From Rhizodiscina lignyota (taxonomy: Eukaryota): a DNA stretch of 64,000 nt. Shown piece after piece: positions 40,486-64,000 of this stretch (its first letter is position 1; the number at the start of each line of letters is the position of its first letter). The notes under the pieces are model-generated. The model made no database searches. It worked only from the letters and a program-made list of their open reading frames with translations, and was not told where the DNA came from. Position numbers and translations under genes: made by a program. Location: the NCBI GenBank assembly GCA_010015805.1, contig ML978121.1, forward strand, positions 496,001 to 560,000. Direction: 5' to 3'.

Positions 40486-43249
40486 ATGCAAGCTACCAAA
40501 GTCCGTCCAAAGACAGCCACGACTGCAGCCACAGCAGCGTCGACCTCAAATGCTCAAGAGGTCACACTCCTTCAAAGTACTGAAGTTGTTCAGACCTTGC
40601 TCCACAGTTCGGTAAGCAGGAAGCTGTGCAAAAGTTAAGCGTTGGGGCTAATGGACCCACTCTCAATCACAGATAAGTTGTCTGAGTTACCTGAGGTGAG
40701 CCAGACTGCGACGCGACGACACGCGTTTTCCTTACTTTTCCACTAACCAGAAACAGAGACCTCTTTCCAGATAACTGCTTCGATGAGATTCACTATGGCA
40801 TGGTGCATCCAATCTCTTATCGCGACTTTGCGGAGGCCAAACATAATATGCGCACCGAGGACATCGAGAACGGGTCCCAGTCATCACATCAAAGTCGACG
40901 TGGAACTCGAACTCGACTTCAAATTTTGCGCCGTGGCAAACATGCGGGCGCAGAGCAGCTGCTAGACTGGCTTGAGGAGGGTGTTTTCGAGGCTTTGCAA
41001 AAGCAACGACTTCGTGCCTTGCAAATGAACATCTTCACCGACAAGTCACGTCCGACCAATGTTCTTGAATCATATACCTTTAGCTTCACATACGCTGAAG
41101 CTGCCTTAAGTGGGATGACCTTCAAATCGTCTCAAGGCGAAGCTGTGACGGTGAAGCATGTTAAGCACGCTCTGCATGATTTCATGCGACAGATGAGCGT
41201 CCTTTGCGGAACACTGCCAGTACTTCCAGGTAAGTTTAGAGAAGAGCACGGGAGATAGTACGCACGTCTCTGTCCGTTACTGATTGTAATCGATTAGACC
41301 GTCGCTTTCTCTCCCTGAACCTCTTCTACACGGATAATTGCCCATCCGATTACCAGCCACCTTTCTTCACCGAATCGACAGAGCATACTCTTAAATTCCC
41401 TGAAGGAGATGGCTGGCGCCTGCAGACAGTTACGCCTGGATCAATGAACTCAGGCCACCACGCTACATCGCTCATAATATCGTTCTTGAGCCAGGATAAT
41501 AAGGGACAGACACCAAGTGCTGGAGCGGAAAAGGATCAAATTCCTGCAGATCTCACTTACAGTCTGGAGAAGCTTGCCGCCTCCGATATCAACCGAGAAT
41601 TCAGTTCAAACCCTCACAGCAACGGTGTCCGACCCTCTGCAGCGCAAGAAGCAAACTATAGAGCAGCCACACCTGTCGACATTCCACCAGAGCAGCTGTT
41701 CACGGAGAGTACCCCCACACCAGGTGCAAAAGACACGGGTCGCCGAGGCATCAAGAAAGATGAGCAGTCAAAGTCTGCTAATGAGATTTCCGACTTCGAG
41801 GATGTTAGTGCATTCATCGACCGTGGGGAGGACTCGAACGAGGATGGTACCACTCTTCTCCCACCGCCTCCTGATGCCGCTCGTTCGACTGAAAATATCA
41901 TCGTTGAAAACTCTCAGGTGTCAACGCAGACGCGTCAAGATGTGCAGACCCAAAAGCAGCTTCGCGACATGTTGAATTCAGTGGGGAAAGACAATAGCCT
42001 CGAGGAAACTCAAGTTGTTGCAGCTGAGACCACGGAGAGCCAACATGACGTCTCACTGTTCGGTGCAATGACTCAGATCCGATTCTCACAGGCCAAGGTC
42101 GCCGAACTAGACGTTCTGAGGAAACGACTAACTATTGGCGATCAGCCGCTCGAAGGCATTTCGTCGTCAATCATGGACGTGGAGCAGGAGTATCCTGTGA
42201 AGTGCCAGTGCGGATTCAATGAGGACGATGGTGACATGGTGAATATAACCATTTCCGCTCCAATCCTGTATTGCTAAGGTGGACCAGATTTGCTGCGATT
42301 TCTGTAACAATTGGCAACATGCCTGCTGCTATGGCTATCTCAGCCCGAAAGATCCTCGAATCCCCGACACACATGCTTGTTATGAGTGCCTCTTGGGAAC
42401 AAAAGAGGGCGTACTTCTTAAAGAGCTGCAGGAACTCGCTCTGCTGCGTTGTGCAGCTTATGCCCTAAAGCATGACGGCGGCATGAACACTGCTCGCGAA
42501 TTCAAGGATATTCTTCGTAAGTGAAGACTCTCTGTAGATGGCATGATAGAGCTAACGTCGTCGAAGACTGTGATCTCCAGACGGCCAACGAGGTGCTCAA
42601 GCATTTCAAGCAGAAGGATTTCTTGAAAGAAACTCCAGGGAGTCGTTCTCGCGGCTTCGCTCAATCAGGAAAGCCGAAATGGACATTTGTGAGCAGTGGC
42701 TCGGACTATGAGCGGATGATGCGAGAATACTTCGATCCGAGCTTAAAGATTGCTCATCATGTAAGCATCATCAGATCCTAATATTGACCCAAGCCACTGA
42801 TATGTATCAAGCTCGCACTTGCCCAGCTGCCGACACAAGCTGGTCCTGTCTCAAAGCAGGTTCCAACAGAGCAAGCAGGTTCTCGTCTAGATTCGACTAG
42901 CAATGACATACAAGGCGACCCACTCCCACTCCCGCTATCACTACGCTCTCGCTCCCGTCAGCAGCAATCAATTGCGAATCCTCCTACATTGCCACCGCCA
43001 GCCGTGACTAGGCGATCCACTCACAGTACGATAACAACGACAAGGATGCCAAAAGGCAAGTCTGCACCGCTCGAGGTGTCCCAACCTACAACGCCGGGTA
43101 AAGCCGGCAAACGAGCAAGGAGCGATGAGCAGATTTCTGCAAGAACACCCAAAAACAGCAGAAAGAGGCTCAAAATGTCAAAGGTCGTCGGCGCTGTCGA
43201 TGTCTCGTATTTGTCTCCCAGCCAGGCGTCCACTCAGAATGAACTGTGA
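40486..43249 (+). CDS. HOP1: Meiotic HORMA-domain axis protein (HORMA + PHD-like Zn finger + winged helix) (introns 40612-40672, 40696-40756, 41230-41297, 42239-42287, 42517-42566, 42761-42811)
   Basis: Spliced ISCLSYLRDLFPDNCF, LLDWLEEGVFEAL, VLESYTFSFTY, LPVLP|DRRFLSLNLFYTDNCPSDYQPPFF (HORMA); CQCG..M|ICCDFCNNWQHACCYGY..HACYEC (PHD). All six introns keep the frame. Confidence 0.88.
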
Positions 43250-45995
43250 TCGCACAAGGAGTCTGTGGCGGTGACGCGGATGCCACAGTGCAGAAGTAAG
43301 AGGATTTGCTTTTAATCTAGCACGAAGGAAGACGATGAACGATAGATTGCATGTGTGCTCTTTGAAGGATCTAGCAGTTGCTTGCCCTGTATGGCTTTGT
43401 TCCACTTCACTTGTCTCATATGACACATACGTCCTTCTGAACTTGCTTTTAGCACGGCGAGATCCTGTACCACATTTTCTGTGGGCCCAACAGAAACCAT
43501 GTACGATAGCACTGGCTACTTTAGCCTTGAGCCTCGGTCGAAAGAAAGATGAAGTTGCATAGTTGTACATGGCGCTTCACTTTGAAGCTGAAAGGCTATG
43601 TATTATTATTCACCGAATCTCAACGTCCGGATCGTGCAACGAAAGAATTATGACACCTCGTGGTGGTGGAGCATAAGAAACTGATGCTGTACGACAAAGG
43701 CGCGACAAAGGCGCGATCGAAGCTGAACTCCATGACGCTGTGAGACGGAGCTGAAGATAGCGAGTGGAGAAGATGCAGGAGTCACAAGGATCATGCTAAA
43801 GCCCCGAATGGTAAGGTGTCTTCCCCGGAAGAGGATTTTGGGAAGTGCAGAAGAAGCAAAGAAGCCTTGCAGCGAGGCTTAACGTCTTTATAGGATTTTC
43901 TTCAAGCTCGACAAATAGCGATTCAGATACGCCTTGAGGAATGTGATTGGCCCAAAAAGCAAGGATCTTTGGAGGGGAAGAGGAAAAAGGATTTCCACCT
44001 CACGCGACTGGACTCTGGCAGACCCTGTTTCCACCATCGGGAGCTCGAGGAACTCGTCACTGCCGTCTTCAGGGGATTCAGATGTGTTCCTGGTCTGTGG
44101 AGATGATCTTGTGCCAGGTTCGTCGATCCTCCTCCTGCCAATCCGAACAAAGACGACAGTGGTCATTGCAAGACAAAACATGGATCACGGAAATTATATC
44201 CAAGACAGAATGTCCAAAAAGGGGTTCATCAGCACTCAATCTTCCGAGGCTTTATGGTTCCAAGGGCTCGAAATCGAGTTGCGCACTCACAATCGGCCCG
44301 TACTCCGCAATGTCGGTGAGTGGGCGAATATTTGGGCGTGCTATGATGTGTCGCTATCCCATTCGTATGGCCCAAATGCTATGCTACACAGTGTGCTCCG
44401 TCCAGTTCCCAATTGTGGTTGGTTTCGAAGTCAAACAGGGCTAACAAAGGAGGGTTGCCTAATTTGGGCTGTCCAAGGTACCGAAGTTGATCTCAAGTTT
44501 GATGTTCGCAGAGCCGACCACCAGGCGGTCATTGCTGCCCTGCAGCAGCAGGGCAGAGAGATGATGCGTTCTGCTCGCCGCCGTCTCCACAGTCAATGCA
44601 TCGCGCTTCTTGGCCTGAGCCGATGGTGACTGCGCACATATCATTCCGTGTTATTTGTTTCATGGGCAAGCTCTCACGGATTGGAGGTCGGTCGAGGCGT
44701 GCCAACATCGCAGACTGTGGCCGTCGAGCGCACCCTTCTCTTTGACCTACCGAATGCCGGGCCTGGGGTTCTTCGAAGCCTGCAGCTACGCAACCGGCCG
44801 CGATCTCTTCGTACAAGGGTGTCTTCCGGCGGATCAGCGAGAATGGAGGAGCAGAGGTGCTGCAGTAGCCTTTCAATTGACATGGACTGCTCGTCCTGCC
44901 TCCCTGATGCGGGCACCCAGAGCATTTTACACGCTCACCTTTCGTCTCAGCATTTTTCCGCGAGGTTGCACGGCAGGCAGGCAGGCGGTTTGAGCATGGC
45001 AAATGCGCCGTGAGCACGTCAAGCAAGCAATTGCTTGTGCGGCGCACCTGAACGTACCCGGCGCTGGGGATCGGCGGGCGGGAGATGGTCGAGATCAGCC
45101 GCGGCACCCTGGTGCATGGCTTTCGGCAGCCCCTGTCGCTGTGGCTTGCATGGCGGCGCGCGCGAATGAGATGGAACCCCTGAGCAACTGCAACGCTTGA
45201 GCGCAGAGCAAAGCCGACGACCTCCTCGTTGCGAAGCCTGTCATGCGCTGGCCGACCATTCCTCATCCATCCCACTCCGGGCAGCAGCAGAAACGTCTGT
45301 CTCTGTTCGCTGTAAAAGAGAGCGACACCATGCCGCCGAGTCCTCTTCCGATCTCATTGTCTCTCCTCCGCGTCCGTCTCTACTCGCTACCTGTATAGTG
45401 CCGCTACGTCTTGACTCGAGCCGACGCCATCCAACGGTCTCGAAATTGGTCCCATTTCACGGGACTGGGGATCAGCGAGATTGGTCCAGTTTCCTTAAAG
45501 TTCATGCACGCTCCTTTGAGAAAGGTGTGTGTCCCGAATCAGCTCCCCTCTTCTGTCAACCGTCCGGCTCTGTGCCGATTCGCATCTTCCTTCATGTGTA
45601 TGACGCGCTTATGAAGGTCGGAGCCGCGCGATCAATTTATTTCTCTTTTGCTGCTCCCCTGCGACGTCACCAAGCACTAACGGGGCTAACAGCGCCTAGA
45701 GATCTTGGTGGAACCGATAGCGCATATCTGAGCTGTCCCTCCTTCTCTCATTCCATCTCGTCGATATACGCCACTGCTGTGCAGTGGAGTCTTAAACTCG
45801 GATGACAGGAGATGGCGCGACCTCTCCTCGGCGCAATTGGTATGTCAAACGCACCTTTGACTCTAGAGCACCGTCCCAGTAGCTGACACCGACTCCCAAG
45901 GCTAATAGGATACCCGCACGTCTCATCGCGCCCCGCAACCCTCGAACCTATGCTATAAGGTTCTCCAGAGCCTGTCTCTCCGTCGGCCTTCCATT

Positions 45996-48900
45996 ATGGG
46001 CCGGACGTCGAAGTTCTCGTTCTCCTTGTCTGGGCGAAAAGGGTCAGCTGCGAAGGAACCGGAGGAGCATCATGACGTGCCACAATGGGTCCCTGCTGCT
46101 CCAAGCGCTAGCAATATGAACATGAGTAAAGTGGAACGACTTTTGGGAGCATCGAGTCTGCCAGTACGGTCGTCACCTTCATACAACTCCTCGGAGCGGG
46201 CATCTCTTAATACGAAACCGAGTTATATGACCCTCACCGTGTCCGAAGCAAGCGCCGACTATAGCGATCACGGGATGACCGCGTCTACAGCTCCCGCGCA
46301 ACATTACCGAGCTTCACGGGGATATCAGAGCCTGCGGCATCGGGCCTCGTCCAACTTGCTTGGCCTGTCTGGCGACCATGACGCTCCTGTCGCGTCTTCA
46401 GCAAGCATCGACACGAGAGATCTACGGGCAGAGCATTCATCATCAACACTGCGGTCATACTACGACGCACAGAAATCGCCGTTATTAGTATCGCAGCAGA
46501 CATCAGCCTCAGCCGTGCGAGACATGGCACTGAGGAAAGGCATGCACCAAGTAATACCATTGGATCACGACGCCAGGCAAGACGCCCGAAATATGGTACC
46601 AGAAAGTGCAGAAACAAGCAGAACAGCCTCCGTAGCAAGCACCGCAAAGCAAAAGAAACCAGGAAGACTCGACTTTTCCAGACTCTTTCCCAGACCCAGA
46701 ACATCTAGCCACAATCTCCATGGCAATAACGACGTTGTCAAGTCCCCGGACCAAATCTCAGTGGCATCAGAGCACTTTCCACCACCACCGCCGCCGCCAA
46801 TGTTGTCGCCGCAAGAACGACCTCCGTCTCGGAAGAGCAACAAATCATCAGCAGAACCGCCACAGTCTCGAAGGAACTCAAAGGCAACGACAGCAGACCG
46901 GCGACAATCCCGTAGGAGCTCCAAGGCTGCCTCGCTCCTTCTTATGAAAGCGAGACCGGAAAGTTCCATTCGGCACGCCAAAACCATGTCCACTGCAAGC
47001 AGTGTGCGCAGCCAACCGTATGAGAATCCAAAGAACAATGTGCACCGTCCACCTCCAGGGATCCAGAATTGGTTTGACGGATTACTGGAGGAAGAAGATG
47101 AGGATGATTTGGAAGGAGCCGACGAACGAGAAGTGGAGAAACAGCCATCGGCCCCACCGCAAACCTCCTTAGATGATCACGATTCCGATGAGTCGGAAGC
47201 AAGAGACACATTACCCGACTATGAGAAACCTCCGCCTCGTGATATCCAACCTAACTCCTTACTATCCCATCCTTCTCTACGCCTGATTTCGGAGATTCCT
47301 AAACCCAGTCCGGCCAGCGTGCAACAACCTCGCCCAACGACGCCGCGAAAAAGCTCAATGCATTCTTCAGGCCAGCGTAGCCGGGCAAACACATCTGAAG
47401 ACAACCAAACTACATCCGAGCAACGGTCAGTAGAGCAACGGTCAGTGGAACAACGGTCGGTCGAACAGAGGTCAATCGAACAGCGGTCAGTCGAACAACG
47501 TTCAGTCGAGCAGCGCTCACCACCAAGGCTGAAGGCGCAAGCGCCGCCACGTGCAATCTCTAATAAAGCTCATCGCCATTCTATGATGAGTCACACGACA
47601 GCTACAACAGTCACATCAGCTGGTAGCAAGAATAGCAAACTCGCAGACCTTGACCTCCACAACTCGAGCGCCCTTTCCTTGTCATCATCGGATGAAGAAG
47701 GAGACGGTGACTTGTCTCTCCCGGCAATACGCGATAGCATCAACATATCCGATTTGCCTACTGAGAACATACTCATCGGCAAGGCAAGGGCCTTTGAAGT
47801 TAAGCCAAAGAAACGACCCAACGAGCCAATCCGCGTACCGTCAACTCCTGTTGAAAGCAATTCCACCAATATCATTGCAGTTCGAGGATCAGATTCCGAG
47901 GAATCGATCGCTTCGGAACCGAAGTCTGCCGGTCCTCGAACTGAAAGGAACGAACAAGCTCTGCGTGAATTCAGTGCCACTCATACCGATGGAGCTCGTG
48001 AGACTCCACGTCCACACACCAGTGGCGCGCATATGCCTACTCGAAAGGATAGAACTGCCTCACCCTCGTCTGGGAGCCAGAAGCGTCGCTCACTGCGCAG
48101 CGAGGTCACGGAAGCAGCAAGCTTCGGTCATGGCCATAAACTGATGGCTGTCACTCCGGAAGAAGAGGCTCTGTTAGAAATGATGAGGACGAAGAGAGCA
48201 GCAATGGCGAAGCATAACTTCAAAGAAGGCTACAAGCTGGCAAAGAAACAGGAAGGAAAGAAAAAGGAGAAGGTTAGCAGGCCGCCAAGCTTGCACGCAG
48301 ATGCTGTGCTAGCGAACATGGCTCATGCGATCTTAAGCAGCGGCCCCAACAGTGCTGACCCACCGCAGGACGCGAAAGACGCGGACGCTGTTGTCACGGT
48401 GAACAGCACGTTTGGTGAGATTATAGATGCTTTTCCCACCCCTTCGCCGACGTCTAATCGCTTCTCGACGACGTATTTGCCGCGGACCGAAGAGCGCAGC
48501 GGCAGCCCTGGCCTATCTGTGGCATCTTCCTCGCGACGTGGACGCTCGAAGAGACACTCCAATTTGTCAACCATGAGCTCAAATGTCCAATCAATGTCTG
48601 GCACATCTGCAACATCATCATCCCCAATCCCTAACGCTGATTCATCCGAAGCAGAAAGCATCGCGTTACTTGAAGGATCGGTCTCGGAACACGTCTCCAA
48701 CGCGTCGACCGTAAAGAGGAAGCCTGGCTTCGACCGGCTCTCGCTCACGCCAATGGACATTTCGATTGGCTCCTTGGAAAGGGAAAGGTCTGGATCCGTG
48801 GCACAGCAATCTTCAACATCCAGTCCTGAAGATGAGAAGACGCAGGAGTCCCAGCGTCAATCCAGCGAAGAAATCATCATCGAGGCTACCGAAAGCGTTG

Positions 48901-49769
48901 TCGCGGAGAATGATACAGACGACTCTGAGGAGTTAAGACAAGAGCTAAACCTGCTTTCACCCCTGCTTCCAGATGAAGAGACACCGGTGCCCAGTAACGA
49001 CGAACACCTCAAAGTCGCGAAGACACGCAGACGTACCAGCATGAGAATTAATGTCGACCCCGAGCCTCCGTCAGCTGCTCCCGGTTCTCCGCTCCCATCA
49101 CCGCGACTTCCCCCGTCACCACGGAGGTCTCACACACCCAAGTCGAACAAGCGGCTGAGCACAGAGTATCGCCTCATCCCGAAGATCACTCCTTCCCCAG
49201 TCTCTCCCTCTTTCCCGCCCATGGCCACAAACCTGGAAGACAGCGACCCCACAACTTCACCCACACCCGTCCAAAACACCTCCCGCACAATGAGCGTTCC
49301 CACTCTCTTGCAATCATCCCTCAGTGACCAATCATCGGAGGGAAGCAGTGGGCGCCCACGCCTCGTTTCGGCCAACTCCGCCCCTGCCCCGGTCCTGGGT
49401 CGCACAACGCCCACCTCCACGCCGTCGGGGGCGTCCTCGTCCTCGTCGACGATCCAGCGGGTCAAGCCGCGTACGATCAACATCGCGAATGTGAAGAAAG
49501 CGTTCAGCGTGGCCCGCGATCCAAGTCCCATGTCAGCGCCGCTTCCCAGACGGAGCGGAAGCAGAGATAGGAGGGAGAAGAAGGCAAAGAGTCGTCAGAG
49601 CTTCCAGGGCATCGATCGGGAGCCTGCCATTGCGGGAGCGAAGATGGAGTCTGGCGAAGGGACGGATAGGTGCAGCGTGAGCGAGGATGTCCTGGCAGCG
49701 TGGGGAAGCCTGGGAGGATGGAGGGGCTTCGATACCGTGGGCGTTGCAGCAGGCAGCGATGGGAATTAG
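45996..49769 (+). CDS. Large single-exon Ser/Pro-rich, probably disordered protein (1257 aa) of unknown function
   Basis: Uninterrupted 3.8 kb ORF with a few ordered-looking islands: LRSYYDAQKSPLLVSQQTSASAVRDMALRKG, IQNWFDGL, LMAVTPEEEALLEMMR.KRAAM, SVSEDVLAAWGSLGG. Confidence 0.85.
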   Translation: MGRTSKFSFSLSGRKGSAAKEPEEHHDVPQWVPAAPSASNMNMSKVERLLGASSLPVRSSPSYNSSERASLNTKPSYMTLTVSEASADYSDHGMTASTAPAQHYRASRGYQSLRHRASSNLLGLSGDHDAPVASSASIDTRDLRAEHSSSTLRSYYDAQKSPLLVSQQTSASAVRDMALRKGMHQVIPLDHDARQDARNMVPESAETSRTASVASTAKQKKPGRLDFSRLFPRPRTSSHNLHGNNDVVKSPDQISVASEHFPPPPPPPMLSPQERPPSRKSNKSSAEPPQSRRNSKATTADRRQSRRSSKAASLLLMKARPESSIRHAKTMSTASSVRSQPYENPKNNVHRPPPGIQNWFDGLLEEEDEDDLEGADEREVEKQPSAPPQTSLDDHDSDESEARDTLPDYEKPPPRDIQPNSLLSHPSLRLISEIPKPSPASVQQPRPTTPRKSSMHSSGQRSRANTSEDNQTTSEQRSVEQRSVEQRSVEQRSIEQRSVEQRSVEQRSPPRLKAQAPPRAISNKAHRHSMMSHTTATTVTSAGSKNSKLADLDLHNSSALSLSSSDEEGDGDLSLPAIRDSINISDLPTENILIGKARAFEVKPKKRPNEPIRVPSTPVESNSTNIIAVRGSDSEESIASEPKSAGPRTERNEQALREFSATHTDGARETPRPHTSGAHMPTRKDRTASPSSGSQKRRSLRSEVTEAASFGHGHKLMAVTPEEEALLEMMRTKRAAMAKHNFKEGYKLAKKQEGKKKEKVSRPPSLHADAVLANMAHAILSSGPNSADPPQDAKDADAVVTVNSTFGEIIDAFPTPSPTSNRFSTTYLPRTEERSGSPGLSVASSSRRGRSKRHSNLSTMSSNVQSMSGTSATSSSPIPNADSSEAESIALLEGSVSEHVSNASTVKRKPGFDRLSLTPMDISIGSLERERSGSVAQQSSTSSPEDEKTQESQRQSSEEIIIEATESVVAENDTDDSEELRQELNLLSPLLPDEETPVPSNDEHLKVAKTRRRTSMRINVDPEPPSAAPGSPLPSPRLPPSPRRSHTPKSNKRLSTEYRLIPKITPSPVSPSFPPMATNLEDSDPTTSPTPVQNTSRTMSVPTLLQSSLSDQSSEGSSGRPRLVSANSAPAPVLGRTTPTSTPSGASSSSSTIQRVKPRTINIANVKKAFSVARDPSPMSAPLPRRSGSRDRREKKAKSRQSFQGIDREPAIAGAKMESGEGTDRCSVSEDVLAAWGSLGGWRGFDTVGVAAGSDGN
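47418..47522 (+). repeat. 7 x 15-bp coding tandem repeat (EQRS[V/I/P])
   Basis: gagcaacggtcagta / gagcaacggtcagtg / gaacaacggtcggtc / gaacagaggtcaatc / gaacagcggtcagtc / gaacaacgttcagtc / gagcagcgctcacca. Confidence 0.9.
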
Positions 49770-50396: not shown

Positions 50397-51275
50397 ATGC
50401 CAAGAAAGGTATATTATACAATCTTTGGAGAGATGTACAGAGCTTCGCTAAGTCTACGTTGTCGCCTTCTGCAGGCCTCTACGACCGCTCCAGCCGTTCG
50501 GATTCGAGAGAACCAGCGGCGGGCTCGCGCTCGCCGGAAAGAGCTCATCGACGACCTGAAAATTAGAATCCGCAATTACGAAACGCAAGGCATCACGGCG
50601 ACCGCTCAAGTGCAGAAAGCTGCTCAGAAGGTCTTGCTAGAGAACAGAGGGCTTCGCGCTTTGTTGGCGGAAAAAGGTGTCCTGCCGGCAGAAATTGAGG
50701 CATTTCTCCACGGCTGCCATTATGATGCCTCTTTCACTGCCGCCTTACAAACGCCAGAACCGGTCGACATAGCTGATACACGGAGCCAGGCAGCATCGTC
50801 AGTGGACCTTCAGCAGTCAGCGGAGACGCATGCTTCAGATGCCACTAACCAGCTTGTCTCCGCAGCCTCGACTCCCGCTGCACCAATGGACATTGAGTGC
50901 AAAAGTGCGAGTGAGGCCGGCAAGGATGGCGAATTTACCGCATCTTCCCCCGACACGGAGTTACGGTGCGGTGAACAACCAGAGGAAGACTTGGAGCGTG
51001 GGAGTCCGTTGCCGAACTTCCTCGGGCCCGTCTCAGACTGCTACTGCCCAGACATAGAGTCGGTCGCTGGCCAAGCACAGAGCTCAGAGACGGAATGCAG
51101 CGTTGCGGCAAATATCCTCGCTGGTTTTCGGGGCCACGGAGACATTGAACAGGCACGGGCTGAACTTGGCTGTCCCGATACCGCCCAGTGTAGCATCACC
51201 AACGCAGCACTTCTCCACGCCTTAGACTCCGAGCACGCGAGTAATACACCCCATGCAATGCACATGTCACGGTGA
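50397..51275 (+). CDS. bZIP-type transcription factor with Cys-rich C-terminal domain (probable 66-nt in-frame intron 50409-50474)
   Basis: Basic region AVRIRENQRRARARRKELIDDLKIRIRNYE, then coiled coil VQKAAQKVLLENRGLRALL. C-terminal DCYCP...ETECSVAANIL...AELGCPDTAQCSITN. Confidence 0.82.
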   Translation: MPRKVYYTIFGEMYRASLSLRCRLLQASTTAPAVRIRENQRRARARRKELIDDLKIRIRNYETQGITATAQVQKAAQKVLLENRGLRALLAEKGVLPAEIEAFLHGCHYDASFTAALQTPEPVDIADTRSQAASSVDLQQSAETHASDATNQLVSAASTPAAPMDIECKSASEAGKDGEFTASSPDTELRCGEQPEEDLERGSPLPNFLGPVSDCYCPDIESVAGQAQSSETECSVAANILAGFRGHGDIEQARAELGCPDTAQCSITNAALLHALDSEHASNTPHAMHMSR

Positions 51276-51435: not shown

Positions 51436-51770
51436 TTACAGGATCGGGCTTGCTCCAGGCTGTTCCTCCATATTTACCTGTTTGGCCATTCTCTCCGTCG
51501 TCGGATCTCCGGGTCGCCATCAGGCTCTTGGATGGCCAACGACTGGCGCACGAATGCGGCATCCACAGCGATCTCGGCAACTGGCCGTACGGCAGATAGA
51601 TTGTTCAGATCTCCGTTCGATGAGGCAAGCCTGGTCATGGCCCTCTGTAGAGGTGTCCTGGCCGAGGCTGAAGAAAAGACGGTAGTAAACATTGCGTACG
51701 GATTTTGGGTTCGATAGAAGGGCCTGCGAGCTGGAAAATTGCTGTAGAGTGGACGGAAAGGGGCGGGCAT
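51436..51770 (-). pseudogene. arsH: arsH relic: N-terminal leader joined to a probable C-terminal tail, flavoprotein core missing
   Basis: NGDLNNLSAVRPVAEIAVDAAFVRQSLAIQEPDGDPEIRRR matches my recollection of the fungal ArsH N-terminus (NGDLNN...SLAI...DD.EVR.KYRPFLL). The frame stops about 6 codons later. It lies inside the arsenic cluster. Confidence 0.65.
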
Positions 51771-52049
51771 TGCATTTTCGCGGACATAGAAAAAAGTCGT
51801 GAATTATCAAGAGTTTGAGGTTGTAGCTGGCACGTGATGTAGAGAGATGTCACTGATACGATTTCATTGGTGGAGTATTCAAGAACATCCCTGGCACCTG
51901 GGACATATCTCGCTGACAAAGCTTGCAACGACATCTATGAGTTAGTAAAATAGTGGAGGATACAGAAGGTCAAGAACATTGCCTACCTTTTTCGCCGTCG
52001 ACACTGGAATCCCGATGGCTATATGAAGTTGCCAACATCTCCACCCATC

Positions 52050-53516
52050 ATGGCTCGGACTGGCAGCCCAGATCCTACCAACGACATCGAACTCGACGCC
52101 GCCACGCAAGGCGAACAAAACGCAGACGTCGCAGATGCATCACCTGATGGTGGGTATGGCTGGGTGGTGGTAGCCTCCTGCTTCACCCTAAACGGTTTCA
52201 CGTGGGGCGTAACAGCGGTGCGTGCTTACCAATTCAGAGACCATCACTCTGAAGCGCTTATGATGTATTTGGGTAGTCGTTTGGAGTGTACCTCTCTGAA
52301 TATCTCTCCTTAGGCGTGTTTCCCGAAGCAAGGCCCCTAGACTATGGATTTGTCGGAGGATTCAACTTCGCGTTTGCCATGTTCGTTGCGCCTCTGGCAA
52401 CCTACCTTACCCGAAAGTTCGGTAAACGCTCTGTCCTACTCTGTGGTAGTATTCTTCAATGCAGCGGCTACGTTGCAGCGTCGTTCGCAACAAAGAATTG
52501 GCATCTTTATTTTTCTCAGGGATTACTTGTGGGCTGCGGTATCGGCTTCATTATTATACCGAGCATGGCGATTCTCTCTCAGTGGTTCTCCCGGAGACGA
52601 AGTGTAGCCAATGGTATCAGTTCAGCTGGCTCGGGCGTAGGAGGCGTTATGTTCACATGGGGCACGGCATCCATGATACGATCTATGGGGCTGGCCTGGG
52701 CGCTGCGCACGACTGGACTAGTCACGCTGGCAGCAAACATCACCGCGACACTTTTCATACGAGACAGGAACCACCATATCAGACCGACTCAGCTTGCCTT
52801 TGACGTCACGCTCCTTCGTCGATACGAGGTCATCCTGCTTCTGCTATGGGCTTTTATCACCATGTTTGGATATATCACGTTGCTCTTCTCCCTCTCCGAC
52901 TTTGCCACTTCGATCCATCTTTCCCGCAGCCAGGCAACTGACATTGTTGGTTTCTTGAATCTCGGAACAGCCGTGGGTAGGCCAATCATCGGGATCCTTA
53001 GCGACCGCTTTTCGAGGACCAATACGGCAGCCGTACTTACCCTAGTCTGCGGCCTCATTTGTTTTGCATTGTGGCTGCCAGACACCTCTTTCGGTCTGAC
53101 AGTCTACTTTGCACTAACCTGCGGAGCCATCCTTGGAGTGTTCTGGATGGTTAGTGTGTCCAATTCCCTCTAATGCTTTATTGGCAAGCTATGACCCGTA
53201 TACGAAGCTAATTTTAATACACAGACTATCGGTCCTCTGTGTGTCGAAGTAGCGGGCCTAAAAAACCTCCCTTCCTTGCTGTCCCTCTCTTGGGTCACAA
53301 TCATAATCCCTACAGCCTGTAAGCTTGCCGATGAGGCGGTCTGCCAAGAGGCTAATTAGCACTGTAGCTTCAGAAGCGATTGCGCTGGTCCTACGCCGCC
53401 CGGGGGCGTCGAGGCCGTACCTATATCCGCAAATATTTGCTGGCCTTTCTTACACTATCGCAAGCCTGTTTATGCTTGAGTTATGGCGCGTTCAGCGTCG
53501 TAGACGTGTGCCGTGA
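52050..53516 (+). CDS. MFS transporter, monocarboxylate-porter (MCT/Mch-like) family (introns 52218-52276, 53150-53224, 53319-53367)
   Basis: PDGGYGWVVVASCFTLNGFTWGVTA|SFGVYL, QWFSRRRSVANGISSAGSGVGG, GRPIIGILSDRF; about 12 hydrophobic segments. Confidence 0.9.
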
Positions 53517-53678: not shown

Positions 53679-54256
53679 TCAGTTCTTGTGCCAGGCTTTT
53701 GGATCATACTCGTCTATCAACTTGGTGTATTCTGCACCACCATTTGCCCAGCCCGCAATGCCTTCGACCAGGACAAGACTGGCAATGTTGTGATCTCCCT
53801 TTTCTGTGAGGAGATCCTGGAACCAGCCAGCTGCGCGGTTCCCGCGGCCTCGGGAGGAACCTTCGGGAGACATTAGCGGGTCTGCAAGTCGCACTGTACA
53901 GGCAAACAAGTACTTACCACAGTACCAAATCACCCTCGGGATCTTTGCCGCCTTCACGATGGTGTAAAGCGTGGGCAGTGACGGATAGAGTGACTGCGCA
54001 GGCAGGTTCAGGGAGCCGTGTATTGTGCCGCCCTGGTGCAGATTGTTAGTGGAATTACGGCACAGATGCGAGAGCTTCAAACCACATGATCGTTTCTTCG
54101 CAAGTCCACGAGAAGGAAATCATGTCCTGGCGATGCACCAGAGTAAATCATGCGAAGGAAATCGGCGCATGAAAGAGCCGACACGTCCTGGGACTGCACG
54201 GCCGGATACCCATCGTACCAGCGTACCTCAGCTTTGGCTGCCACCTTGTCTTCCAT
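53679..54256 (-). CDS. ACR2: Cdc25/rhodanese-like arsenate reductase (Acr2/Ych1/Ibp1 family) (introns 54033-54082, 53861-53917)
   Basis: FLLVDLRRNDHV|GGTIHGSLNLPAQSLY...VIWYCG|SSRGRGNRAAGWF (CX5R active site)...LVEGIAGW. Divergent from ACR3. Confidence 0.85.
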
Positions 54257-54763
54257 GAATTGCTGATAATAATAAAAATGCAGAGGAAGCGTACGCTATT
54301 AAGGAGCATATTCGTTGTTCGTGGGCATTTCGCCGTGCCCTGATTAAATAAGTATCCATCTCGCTGCCCTTGCGAATGCGGTACTGTTTCCTCGCGTCTG
54401 ATTGGTTCTTTGCGGTGCGTCACAGATACCTTTTAATTGGTGCAAGGCAGCATTTGTTATTTGACTAGCTCCCAGTGCATGCAGTTGAATACTCCTGCAA
54501 GGCGCCTCTAGAAGCGGAAAGTTCCACGAAAAAGGGAGCGTCACCGATTGCTTCTGATTGGCTAGCGACTAGCTACACAGAAACCTATGCTCCATGTTCG
54601 CCTTGCCTTTTGGAATGTGATATAAGCCATGAAATATCGAGACAAAACGACATTCAACCACTACCCAAAGTCCATACTCCTAGATTACACAACGCCTCGT
54701 ACGCTGCGGCTGCTGCACATCTCTCACAATTCCTCAAACGCCATCTCGAGGAATCGACTAACC

Positions 54764-60525: not shown

Positions 60526-62437
60526 ATGGCGACCGGAGATCATGAGCTGCAAGTCGCTGAGTGAGTCCTGACAAGCTTTCTCTCCAATCCGACAAGCAAA
60601 TACTAATGACGCCTTCAGCCTTCATCAGAGGCTTAGCGTTGATGATGCAGTCGACCCAAATCGCCGCCATTCAGACGTCTTTGGCGGCGAGCTGCCCCCG
60701 CAGGAGAAAGAAGTCACTGTCGACCTGAAAGATGACAAGGAGACAGCTTCTGCCACTGCCGACGTTGCGGATGAAAAGGCCGCCCTCGAGACGCCCGACG
60801 GCGAAGAGCCAACGGAACACGAGAACAGGCACCTCCGCCATGTGTCTGAGAAGTTTCCGCTCGCCATTTTCTTGGTGGCTTTTATCGAGCTCTGTGAGCG
60901 CTTCACGTACTATGGCATCAGCGGCCTCTTCCAAAACTACGCTCAACGCCCTCTCGACGGCAGCGAAGGACGAGGAGCGCTGGGAATGGGCCACCAAGGC
61001 GCCACGGGCTTGACGACATTCTTCCAGTTCTGGTGCTATGTCACTCCAATCATCGGTGCTATCATCGCAGACCAGTATCTCGGGCGATATCTGACGATTC
61101 TTATATTCTGCGTCGTGTACATCGTTGGCCTCCTCATTCTCTTCTTGACTTCTCTCCCAGTCGCGCTGCAGCATGGCGCTGGTCTCGGCGGCTTCATCAC
61201 CGCCGTCATCGTCATCGGCTTGGGCACGGGCGGCATCAAGTCCAATGTCGCGCCTCTCATTGCAGACCAATACAAACGGCGCAATATGGCCGTCCACACG
61301 CTCGCAAAGACCGGCGAGCGCGTGATTCTAGACCCGAACCTAACGATCCAGCGCATTTACATGCTCTTCTACTTCTGCATCAACATCGGATGTCTGGCTC
61401 TGCTTGCGACCCCGTATATGGAGCGCCTCGTTGGCTTCTGGTCTGCCTACCTCCTCGGCTTCCTCATGTTCCTCTGCGGTCTTGCCGTCCTGGTTCTCGG
61501 CAAGAAACTCTACACCGTCACACCGCCGCAAGGCTCCGTCATCACAGACGCGTTCAGGGCGATGTGGATCATGATCCGCAACCGCAACAGCGACGCTCCA
61601 AAACCCTCGTTTACTGGCCAGCGCGTTGGTAACCCGAATATTCGCTGGGACGACAAGTTCATCGACGAACTGAAGCGTGCGTTGATTGCTTGCAGAGTGT
61701 TCGTGTTTTACCCGATATACTGGGTGTGCTATGGCCAATTTTCGGGGAACTTCGTCTCCCAAGGTACGTCGTTTCTTCCGTCCTGTCCATCTTCATGGCG
61801 TCTGTTATCCTCTTGAAGCTCATACCACTCCACAGCCGGCCAAATGCGCGGCCACGGCATCCCAAACGACCTAATGCAGAACTTCGACCCCATCGCCATC
61901 ATCGTGTTCGTCCCCCTCCTCGACCGCCTCATCTACCCTCTCCTCCTGCGCCTGCGCATCCGCTACCCGCCCATCAACCGCATCACTACGGGCTTCTGGG
62001 TCGCGGGGCTGGCGATGGCGTACGCGGCCATCGTGCAGCACATCATCTACACCAAGCCGCCGTGCTACTCCGCCCCCCTCTGCGACGCGTCCCTGGACGC
62101 GAGCGGCGTCGCGCAGGGCAACAACGTGCACATTGCCATCCAGGCGCCGGCATACATGCTGATCGGGATCAGCGAGGTGTTTGCGAGCGTGACGGGGCTG
62201 GAGTACGCGTACACGAAGGCGCCGCCGAGCATGAAGAGCTTCGTGCAGAGCATGTATCTGCTGACGAATGCGTTTGGGAGTGCGATTGGCGAGGCGTTGG
62301 TGCCGGTGTTGGTGGATCCGAAGGTGCTGTGGATGTATGTCGGGCTGGCATTTACGAGCTTTATTACTGGCTGCGTTGTGTGGTTGTTGTTCCATAAGTA
62401 CAACAAGACGGAGGAAGAACTTAATGCTCTGGGGTAG
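60526..62437 (+). CDS. PTR2: POT/PTR family di/tripeptide transporter (introns 60561-60618, 61764-61835)
   Basis: ELCERFTYYG (ExxERFxYYG), GAIIADQYLGRY, GLGTGGIKSNVAPLIADQY, FYFCINIG, GLEYAYTKAPPSMKS. Confidence 0.93.
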
Positions 62438-62821
62438 AAAAGGCGTTTGATGGACGCTGGCAAGAAGGAAACGAAATACTGGACATGACTACAATAGCAG
62501 AGAATATCAATTCTTCGGCATGACTTACCGTAACAGAGACGCATCTGGGTGTTAACTCATGTGTGCCAAAAGGCGATCCCTACGGTCGCTTTGGACAGTG
62601 GTGTCGGGAAACAGTCACGGTGTCAAAACTGGACAATTGGAACATGTGTTTTGGAGGTAGAAAACCTCAGCCCGTAGGCGTGATCATTTCATTGAATGAA
62701 GCGATAAGCATGATGCAAGCTATATGCAAGTCCGTCCCAGCCTCATCATGATCCCATCATAATTCCGTTGAGGCGCCAAAATGCAGTGTGAAGAGAAGAA
62801 GAAACCCGCCAGAAATCGCAT

Positions 62822-63854
<1,033 letters not shown>

Positions 63855-63985
63855 GGTGCTGGTGTATGTGTGTGAGGCTCTGAAGAGGTTTAAGTGTGGA
63901 TATGGTATGTGGGCTTTGAAGCTCAGAGTTTTGCGAGTGGAAGGTGAGTTGTAGGAAGGAGGGTGGGAGCAGGTAGTGCTGAGGA

Positions 63986-63992
63986 TTATATA
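63986..63992 (-). promoter_or_regulatory. TATA box upstream of polyubiquitin
   Basis: TATATAA on the minus strand about 130 nt upstream of the ATG, followed by a pyrimidine-rich leader. Confidence 0.5.
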
Positions 63993-64000
63993 CCGCTGGG

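Follow-up and report, generated by a model that had tools for sequence, protein, structure and literature searches.

A bZIP gene linked to arsenic-resistance genes in Rhizodiscina lignyota, and a CCAAT-coupled element shared by their promoters

How do moulds switch on their defence against arsenic? In Saccharomyces cerevisiae, the basic leucine zipper (bZIP) protein Yap8 adjoins ACR3 and uses three cysteines for As(III), and Yap8 is confined to a few yeasts (PMC6545440). The arsenic-resistance (ars) clusters of filamentous fungi are widespread and mobile. Our literature search, outside which most subscription papers lay, found no characterised arsenic regulator for these fungi, and none is named in the accessible parts of PMC8298002, PMC8618186 and PMC12112881. 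We analysed a 64,000-nucleotide stretch of Rhizodiscina lignyota DNA (GenBank assembly GCA_010015805.1, contig ML978121.1, positions 496,001 to 560,000 of the forward strand), here called the window, in which a bZIP gene at 50397-51275 lies beside ars genes in the order bZIP (+), 5' fragment of arsH (-), major facilitator superfamily (MFS) transporter (+), ACR2-like reductase (-) and ACR3 (+). As with Yap8, the bZIP gene clusters with ACR2 and ACR3. The initial annotation had proposed that its product is an As(III)-sensing regulator of the neighbouring genes, analogous to Yap8 without being its ortholog. From the sequence evidence, we put the probability that the protein is a cluster-specific regulator of the adjacent ars genes, acting beside the CCAAT-binding complex (CBC), at about 0.6, and we regard it as a strong candidate for how moulds turn on arsenic defence.

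The first question is whether the gene keeps company with ars genes elsewhere. It belongs to a large Pezizomycotina family: a search against 50%-identity representatives gave 1115 matches at E ≤ 0.001, the best 150 of which were analysed as family members. About 33 close homologs, mostly 57-81% identical, form one long-branch clade. Metagenomes yielded 274 confirmed relatives, of which the best 80 loci were analysed; a metagenome scan with the close homologs only gave 173 pattern matches and 0 relatives. A tree divides the 80 loci into subfamily A (48 loci, including the clade of this gene) and subfamily U (32 loci), with support 99/99 on 35 rows. Scoring ACR3, ACR2, ArsH or an ArsM-like methyltransferase as an ars gene, we found one in 30 of the 48 A loci and in none of the 32 U loci. 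The counts were 23/28 against 0/15 for loci of at least 5 kb and 13/16 against 0/12 for loci of at least 10 kb. When loci were grouped at 85% identity, 15 of 23 A groups and 0 of 13 U groups were linked (Fisher p 9e-5, a value that overstates independence because the groups share descent). The MFS family of the window likewise has a homolog in 10/48 A loci and 0/32 U loci. For the close homologs, identical contig size served as a fingerprint of a shared contig: among contigs of at least 5 kb with a close ACR2 homolog, 13 of 16 were size-matched to a contig with a close bZIP, against 0 of 103 with a distant ACR2 (the comparison used the best 120 of 181 ACR2 matches, and 13 of 41 bZIP contigs were matched). 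In Rhizodiscina, Elaphomyces and Aulographum, the accession numbers of the bZIP and ACR2 differ by 2-3. Homologs unlinked to ars genes had been named beforehand as grounds for abandoning the proposal, and the linkage held.

The sequences further suggest that the ars cluster may have spread horizontally. The bZIP is 82% identical to that of Elaphomyces (Eurotiomycetes) and 58% identical to that of Aulographum, which is of the same order as Rhizodiscina; for ACR2, the corresponding values are 89% and 83%. The cluster in the window is flanked by ordinary genes, and a scan that took part of the open reading frames found no Starship captain (DUF3435) among the long ones scanned in the window. Elsewhere in subfamily A, a DDE transposase (L056:11608-12660) adjoins an ars cluster with several copies of the promoter element described below, including ATGAC variants. 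A small gene without a Pfam match recurs between the bZIP and ACR3 (L034:833-1318 and six other A loci) and may be an unnamed accessory ars gene.

We counted k-mers in the upstream regions of ACR3, ACR2 and arsH from 14 groups, the window included. CAGTGACA and GCCAATCA each ranked near the top, and in context they form CSAAT-N12-GTGAC, a CCAAT box followed by a TGAC bZIP half-site at the position where the half-site abuts the CBC. No second half-site is conserved. This element occurs 38 times in the A loci (369 kb) and not at all in the U loci (295 kb), and each of the other spacings (N6-N11 and N13-N18) occurs 0-4 times. Three copies are present in the window, with 0.11 expected from shuffles, and all lie inside two ars intergenic regions, 54257-54763 and 51771-52049, both of which the initial annotation had singled out as candidate binding regions:

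51849..51870, minus strand: CCAAT-N12-GTGAC in the arsH/MFS divergent promoter; matrix score 23.1, the top of the window
54419..54440, minus strand: CCAAT-N12-GTGAC, a weaker copy; distance to the ACR2 start 163 bp; matrix score 9.2
54540..54561, minus strand: CCAAT-N12-GTGAC in the divergent promoter of ACR2 and ACR3; distance to the ACR3 start 203 bp; matrix score 19.2

The scoring matrix, built from 20 sites outside the window, ranks two of the window sites first (23.1 and 19.2), followed by an unrelated position at 9.8. With a leave-one-group-out matrix, scores of at least 14 were obtained in 30/30 loci with ars genes, 2/18 other A loci and 1/32 U loci. A relaxed pattern was present upstream of ACR2 in 7/7 groups, of arsH in 8/8 and of ACR3 in 5/8. 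Across the genome, the N12 pattern is at background (38 copies, equal to the 38 of the N11 control), which indicates that the element is cluster-specific. No copy lies within 600 bp upstream of the window bZIP, the place where autoregulation might have left one. That ars promoters share CSAAT-N12-GTGAC is new here; the literature search returned no report of the element, of the A/U split or of the cysteine domain described below. Two subfamily-A loci (L020:1607-1855 and L077) combine the bZIP and the element with a divergent ACR3 class (44-46% identity). In the window, the copy that scores best still lies in the promoter of the arsH fragment and may have been retained for the divergently transcribed MFS gene.

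Could this protein bind such a half-site? The spliced product has 270 residues and is identical to a database protein (P0002) labelled at source as a Rhizodiscina lignyota hypothetical bZIP protein. In one sequencing run, which may be the source of this DNA, a single contig spans the region with 0 differences. The gene is laid out as follows:

50397..50408, plus strand: exon 1 of the bZIP gene (MPRK; ATG at 50397), whose spliced product is P0002
50409..50474, plus strand: intron of 66 nt, GT..AG, stop-free and in frame, with a branch-point-like GCTAAG at 50447-50452
50475..51275, plus strand: exon 2, 266 codons and the stop, which ends at 51275
50499..50714, plus strand: basic region and conserved irregular coiled coil, residues 13-84, placed by alignment to CREB, GCN4 and 7AW7_D and by column counts

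The in-frame, stop-free intron of the initial annotation was thus confirmed. Retention of the intron, which by that annotation would extend the protein, found no support: a look for RNA runs found none, and the predicted product of one homolog (P0014) changes frame across the stretch; another (P0332), unlike P0014, reads through the equivalent stretch. A Pfam search of the 270-residue protein recognised no domain. The family profile matches CREB at E 0.002, bZIP_1 is matched at E ≤ 1 by 72 of the 150 aligned family members, and a zipper behind a basic region places the protein in the bZIP superfamily. That basic region, RIRENQRRARARRKE, is there as had been stated and is not of the Yap type: the aligned stretch reads IRENQRRAR, in which Q and R are all that survives of NxxAQxxFR, the Yap signature. 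It carries Gln18, Ala21, Arg22 and Ile14, the last in place of the invariant bZIP Asn. Yap8 likewise replaces this Asn, with Leu26 (PMC7261193). Ile occupies the position in 17/17 close homologs that cover it; the replacement is therefore a family-wide trait and not an arsenic-specific one.

The spacing of the element invites a comparison with a second known system. HapX is a metal-responsive bZIP with cysteine clusters, and its N-terminal CBC-binding segment follows a Hap4-like consensus. HapX binds CSAAT-N12-RWT together with the CBC and favours bZIP half-sites 14 nt downstream, at the end of the CBC footprint (PMC7144946). The window element shares CSAAT and the N12 spacing, and at +14 it has a TGAC half-site (TKAN in HapX). 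Building on the observed linkage and shared element, we infer that the CBC (HapB/C/E) would occupy CSAAT, that 14 nt downstream a bZIP dimer would dock on the TGAC half-site, bordering the CBC footprint as HapX does, and that the docked bZIP would activate ACR2, ACR3 and arsH. The genome encodes HapC- and HapE-like proteins, identified by eye. The two systems differ in several respects: RWT in HapX is GTGAC here, the half-site position is variable there and fixed here, NxxAQxxFR and the N-terminal Hap4-like segment are found in HapX and neither is found here, and HapX governs an iron regulon whereas the predicted targets here are restricted to the cluster. The window bZIP would be Yap8-like in role and HapX-like in promoter geometry, and it fails a defining feature of each.

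The same geometry raises the alternative that the element is bound by another factor, such as HapX, the U paralog, Yap1 or a bZIP of the ATF/CREB type, with the cluster bZIP acting as modulator or heterodimer partner or being a mere hitch-hiker. The half-site sits exactly where HapX prefers it, and the basic region of subfamily U is almost identical to that of subfamily A. However, positions 13-15 of the element are GTG and not the RWT of HapX (partly a consequence of site selection), and the background count across the genome speaks against a global regulon. In addition, a second, divergent ACR3-like gene of the genome (L086/L090, G000:C4:436657-436812) has neither a family bZIP nearby nor a good site within 20 kb, and continued linkage in many lineages, at 30-37% identity, implies that co-function has been under selection. 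We consider binding by another factor quite improbable.

Several observations weigh against a cluster-specific regulator acting beside the CBC. No ars gene was found in the fetched DNA of 5 of the 28 A loci of at least 5 kb. Only 12 residues precede the basic region, which leaves no room for the CBC-binding segment of HapX. A and U hardly differ in their basic regions, so that the same half-site could be read by U or by another bZIP. These last two points are the chief gaps in the mechanism. The element could also mark ars promoters in general: the loci sampled carry a family bZIP, and the sole ars gene sampled without one is the second ACR3-like gene of the genome. The promoters used for motif discovery overlap the test set; the fixed spacing was not selected for. 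Finally, arsH survives in the window as a fragment, and the cluster may be decaying.

Whether the protein senses arsenic itself is a separate question, which turns on its C-terminal cysteines. All five that had been claimed (C193, C195, C212, C237 and C243) are present, and they fall into two features:

51039..51047, plus strand: the C193-x-C195 pair (CxC), confined to part of subfamily A
51087..51227, plus strand: C-terminal beta-alpha-alpha-beta-alpha domain with invariant C212, C237 and C243, assigned to no Pfam family

Among the 33 close homologs, C193 is kept in 30, C195 in 31, C212 in 33, C237 in 31 and C243 in 30, while C85 is kept in only 4. A lack of conservation had been set in advance as a reason to drop the proposal, and these residues are conserved. 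In distant members, C212 is present in 173/173, C237 in 172/173 and C243 in 172/173. The CxC pair occurs in 28 of the 33 close homologs and, among distant members, in 54 of 174 sequences. As(III) may bind the C212/C237/C243 triad, aided by C193/C195 in some lineages, and would thereby switch the factor on in a Yap8-like manner within another bZIP lineage. By analogy with Yap8, direct sensing by the triad is a tentative proposal, a little short of even odds.

It competes with the possible, though not probable, explanation that the bZIP regulates the cluster through the element without sensing arsenic, the triad being an ancestral structural metal site or a redox switch and the signal arriving indirectly through thiol oxidation, phosphorylation or protein stability. 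This explanation fits an invariant triad, found in 172-173 of the 173 distant members and in 9 of 10 groups of the unlinked subfamily U, and a CxC pair that 7 of 13 ars-linked groups do without. On the other hand, a small domain with three invariant cysteines matches the way in which Yap8 binds through three thiols, and CxC is exclusive to subfamily A (9/21 groups against 0/10 in U). With the triad also in U and CxC missing from those groups, As(III) sensing does not follow from the cysteines alone. Of the original proposal of an As(III)-sensing cluster regulator, the regulatory part gains from the ars linkage and the shared element, and the direct-sensing part is weakened by these two findings. 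The genome itself encodes a U member (L002, G000:C2:3122182-3122442), unlinked to ars genes, with the same basic region and cysteine triad; this type of paralog is conserved across many fungi, and no function for it was found in the papers searched.

Is the protein then simply a highly diverged Yap, with a C-terminal domain remotely homologous to PAP1, the C-terminal cysteine-rich domain of Yap proteins? By eye, C212 and C237 could correspond to C598 and C629 of Yap1 (numbering of PMC6545440). The Yap-type Gln is retained. An AlphaFold2 model of the C terminus (pLDDT 72) has the order strand-helix-helix-strand-helix, which recurs when a true PAP1 domain of the genome is modelled, and in ESM Atlas features, a single source, PF08601 PAP1 clusters came first twice at 0.76-0.83, below the 0.9 bar. 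Against this, profile comparisons (hhalign and hidden Markov model) with the two PAP1 domains of the genome were at chance level, and a PF08601 search of the genome found those two other loci only and not this protein. Foldseek of the domain model against the PDB gave no match at E ≤ 0.001. In a fold search, its best Z was 4.3 with no clear fold, which does not thereby make the fold new; 1SSE was absent among the 50 matches listed for it, whereas the control PAP1 model matched 1SSE_B at Z 7.1. We regard a diverged Yap as unlikely and treat homology to its cysteine-rich domain as no more than a lead.

The comparison with Yap8/Arr1 itself is similarly divided. Both are bZIPs clustered with ACR2 and ACR3, with a divergent ACR2/ACR3 promoter and three key cysteines (PMC6545440, PMC7261193), and both carry an aliphatic residue for the invariant Asn (Leu26 in Yap8, Ile14 here). 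In contrast, the basic region is LxxSQxxFR in Yap8 and IRENQRRAR here, a PAP1 domain is undetectable here, the site is a 13-bp palindrome (TGATTAATAATCA) in Yap8 and a CCAAT-coupled half-site here, and the distribution is a few yeasts there and Pezizomycotina here. That palindrome, the Yap8 response element, is absent from the ACR2/ACR3 promoter of the window, in which only TGATTAAAT stands at 54341. There is no TTAATAA core between 49700 and 57000, and one TTAGTAA lies at 51942. We also considered palindromes of the Yap8 response element, Yap response element, AP-1 and cAMP response element types in the ACR2/ACR3 promoter and found no convincing copy.

A Yap8-like bZIP in the arsenic clusters of filamentous fungi is already a published suggestion, which weakens the reading of the initial annotation. 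In O'Donnell 2025, the accessory genes often found in Starship arsH/arsC/arsB clusters include the bZIP ENOG503PUQW, for which a Yap8-like role is suggested (PMC12256816). In the text and Table S3_3, it appears as an eggNOG label with a one-line suggestion, without a sequence, domain or cis element; it is probably the same family as the window bZIP, going by description only. Magnaporthe BIP1 and BIP2 are also Pezizomycotina-specific bZIPs missed by Pfam, and BIP1 binds a TGAC-containing site (PMC10833574); compared by description only, they differ in that the accessible part of that article reports no arsenic link. In the Botrytis Ariane preprint (10.64898/2026.05.30.728154), the available text notes an MFS gene in the ars region and no bZIP. 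The analysis thus defines a protein subfamily for which the unlinked sister subfamily serves as a built-in control, with an element of 22 bp and five candidate cysteines to work on. If cooperation with the CBC is true, HapX would not be the only fungal bZIP with the CSAAT-N12 geometry. More speculatively, filamentous ascomycetes could have their own arsenic-sensing system unrelated to Yap8, namely a bZIP whose three-cysteine As(III)-binding domain had so far gone undescribed, which travels with ars clusters, also horizontally, and serves as a second HapX-like partner of the CBC on CSAAT-N12-GTGAC at its fixed spacing without a Hap4-like segment. A compact As(III) sensor with its element, if real, would be useful for biosensors and bioremediation.

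The neighbouring genes of the cluster are the following:

51474..51770, minus strand: arsH 5' fragment of 98 codons, a pseudogene that ends before the FMN reductase domain
52050..53516, plus strand: MFS transporter gene (MFS_1), a recurrent cluster member; exon model inferred
53679..54256, minus strand: ACR2/ArsC-like arsenate reductase with a rhodanese fold (Rhodanese), 156 residues; P0350
54764..56055, plus strand: ACR3 arsenite efflux pump (SBF family), 4 exons, 375 residues, intact

In 13 loci, the N-terminus of ArsH matches the arsH fragment, with E 1.7e-10 at best, and a search of the genome with one full-length query found no full ArsH. P0350 is labelled at source as an arsenate reductase, and in-silico splicing of ACR3 gives one open frame. 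Outside the cluster, the window holds a HORMA-domain gene at 40695-42800, a PTR2 peptide transporter at 60572-62437 and a polyubiquitin gene with introns at 62700-64000 (-). A low-complexity open reading frame of 1286 codons without a Pfam match, at 45909-49769 (+), contains a short tandem peptide repeat near 47350-47450.
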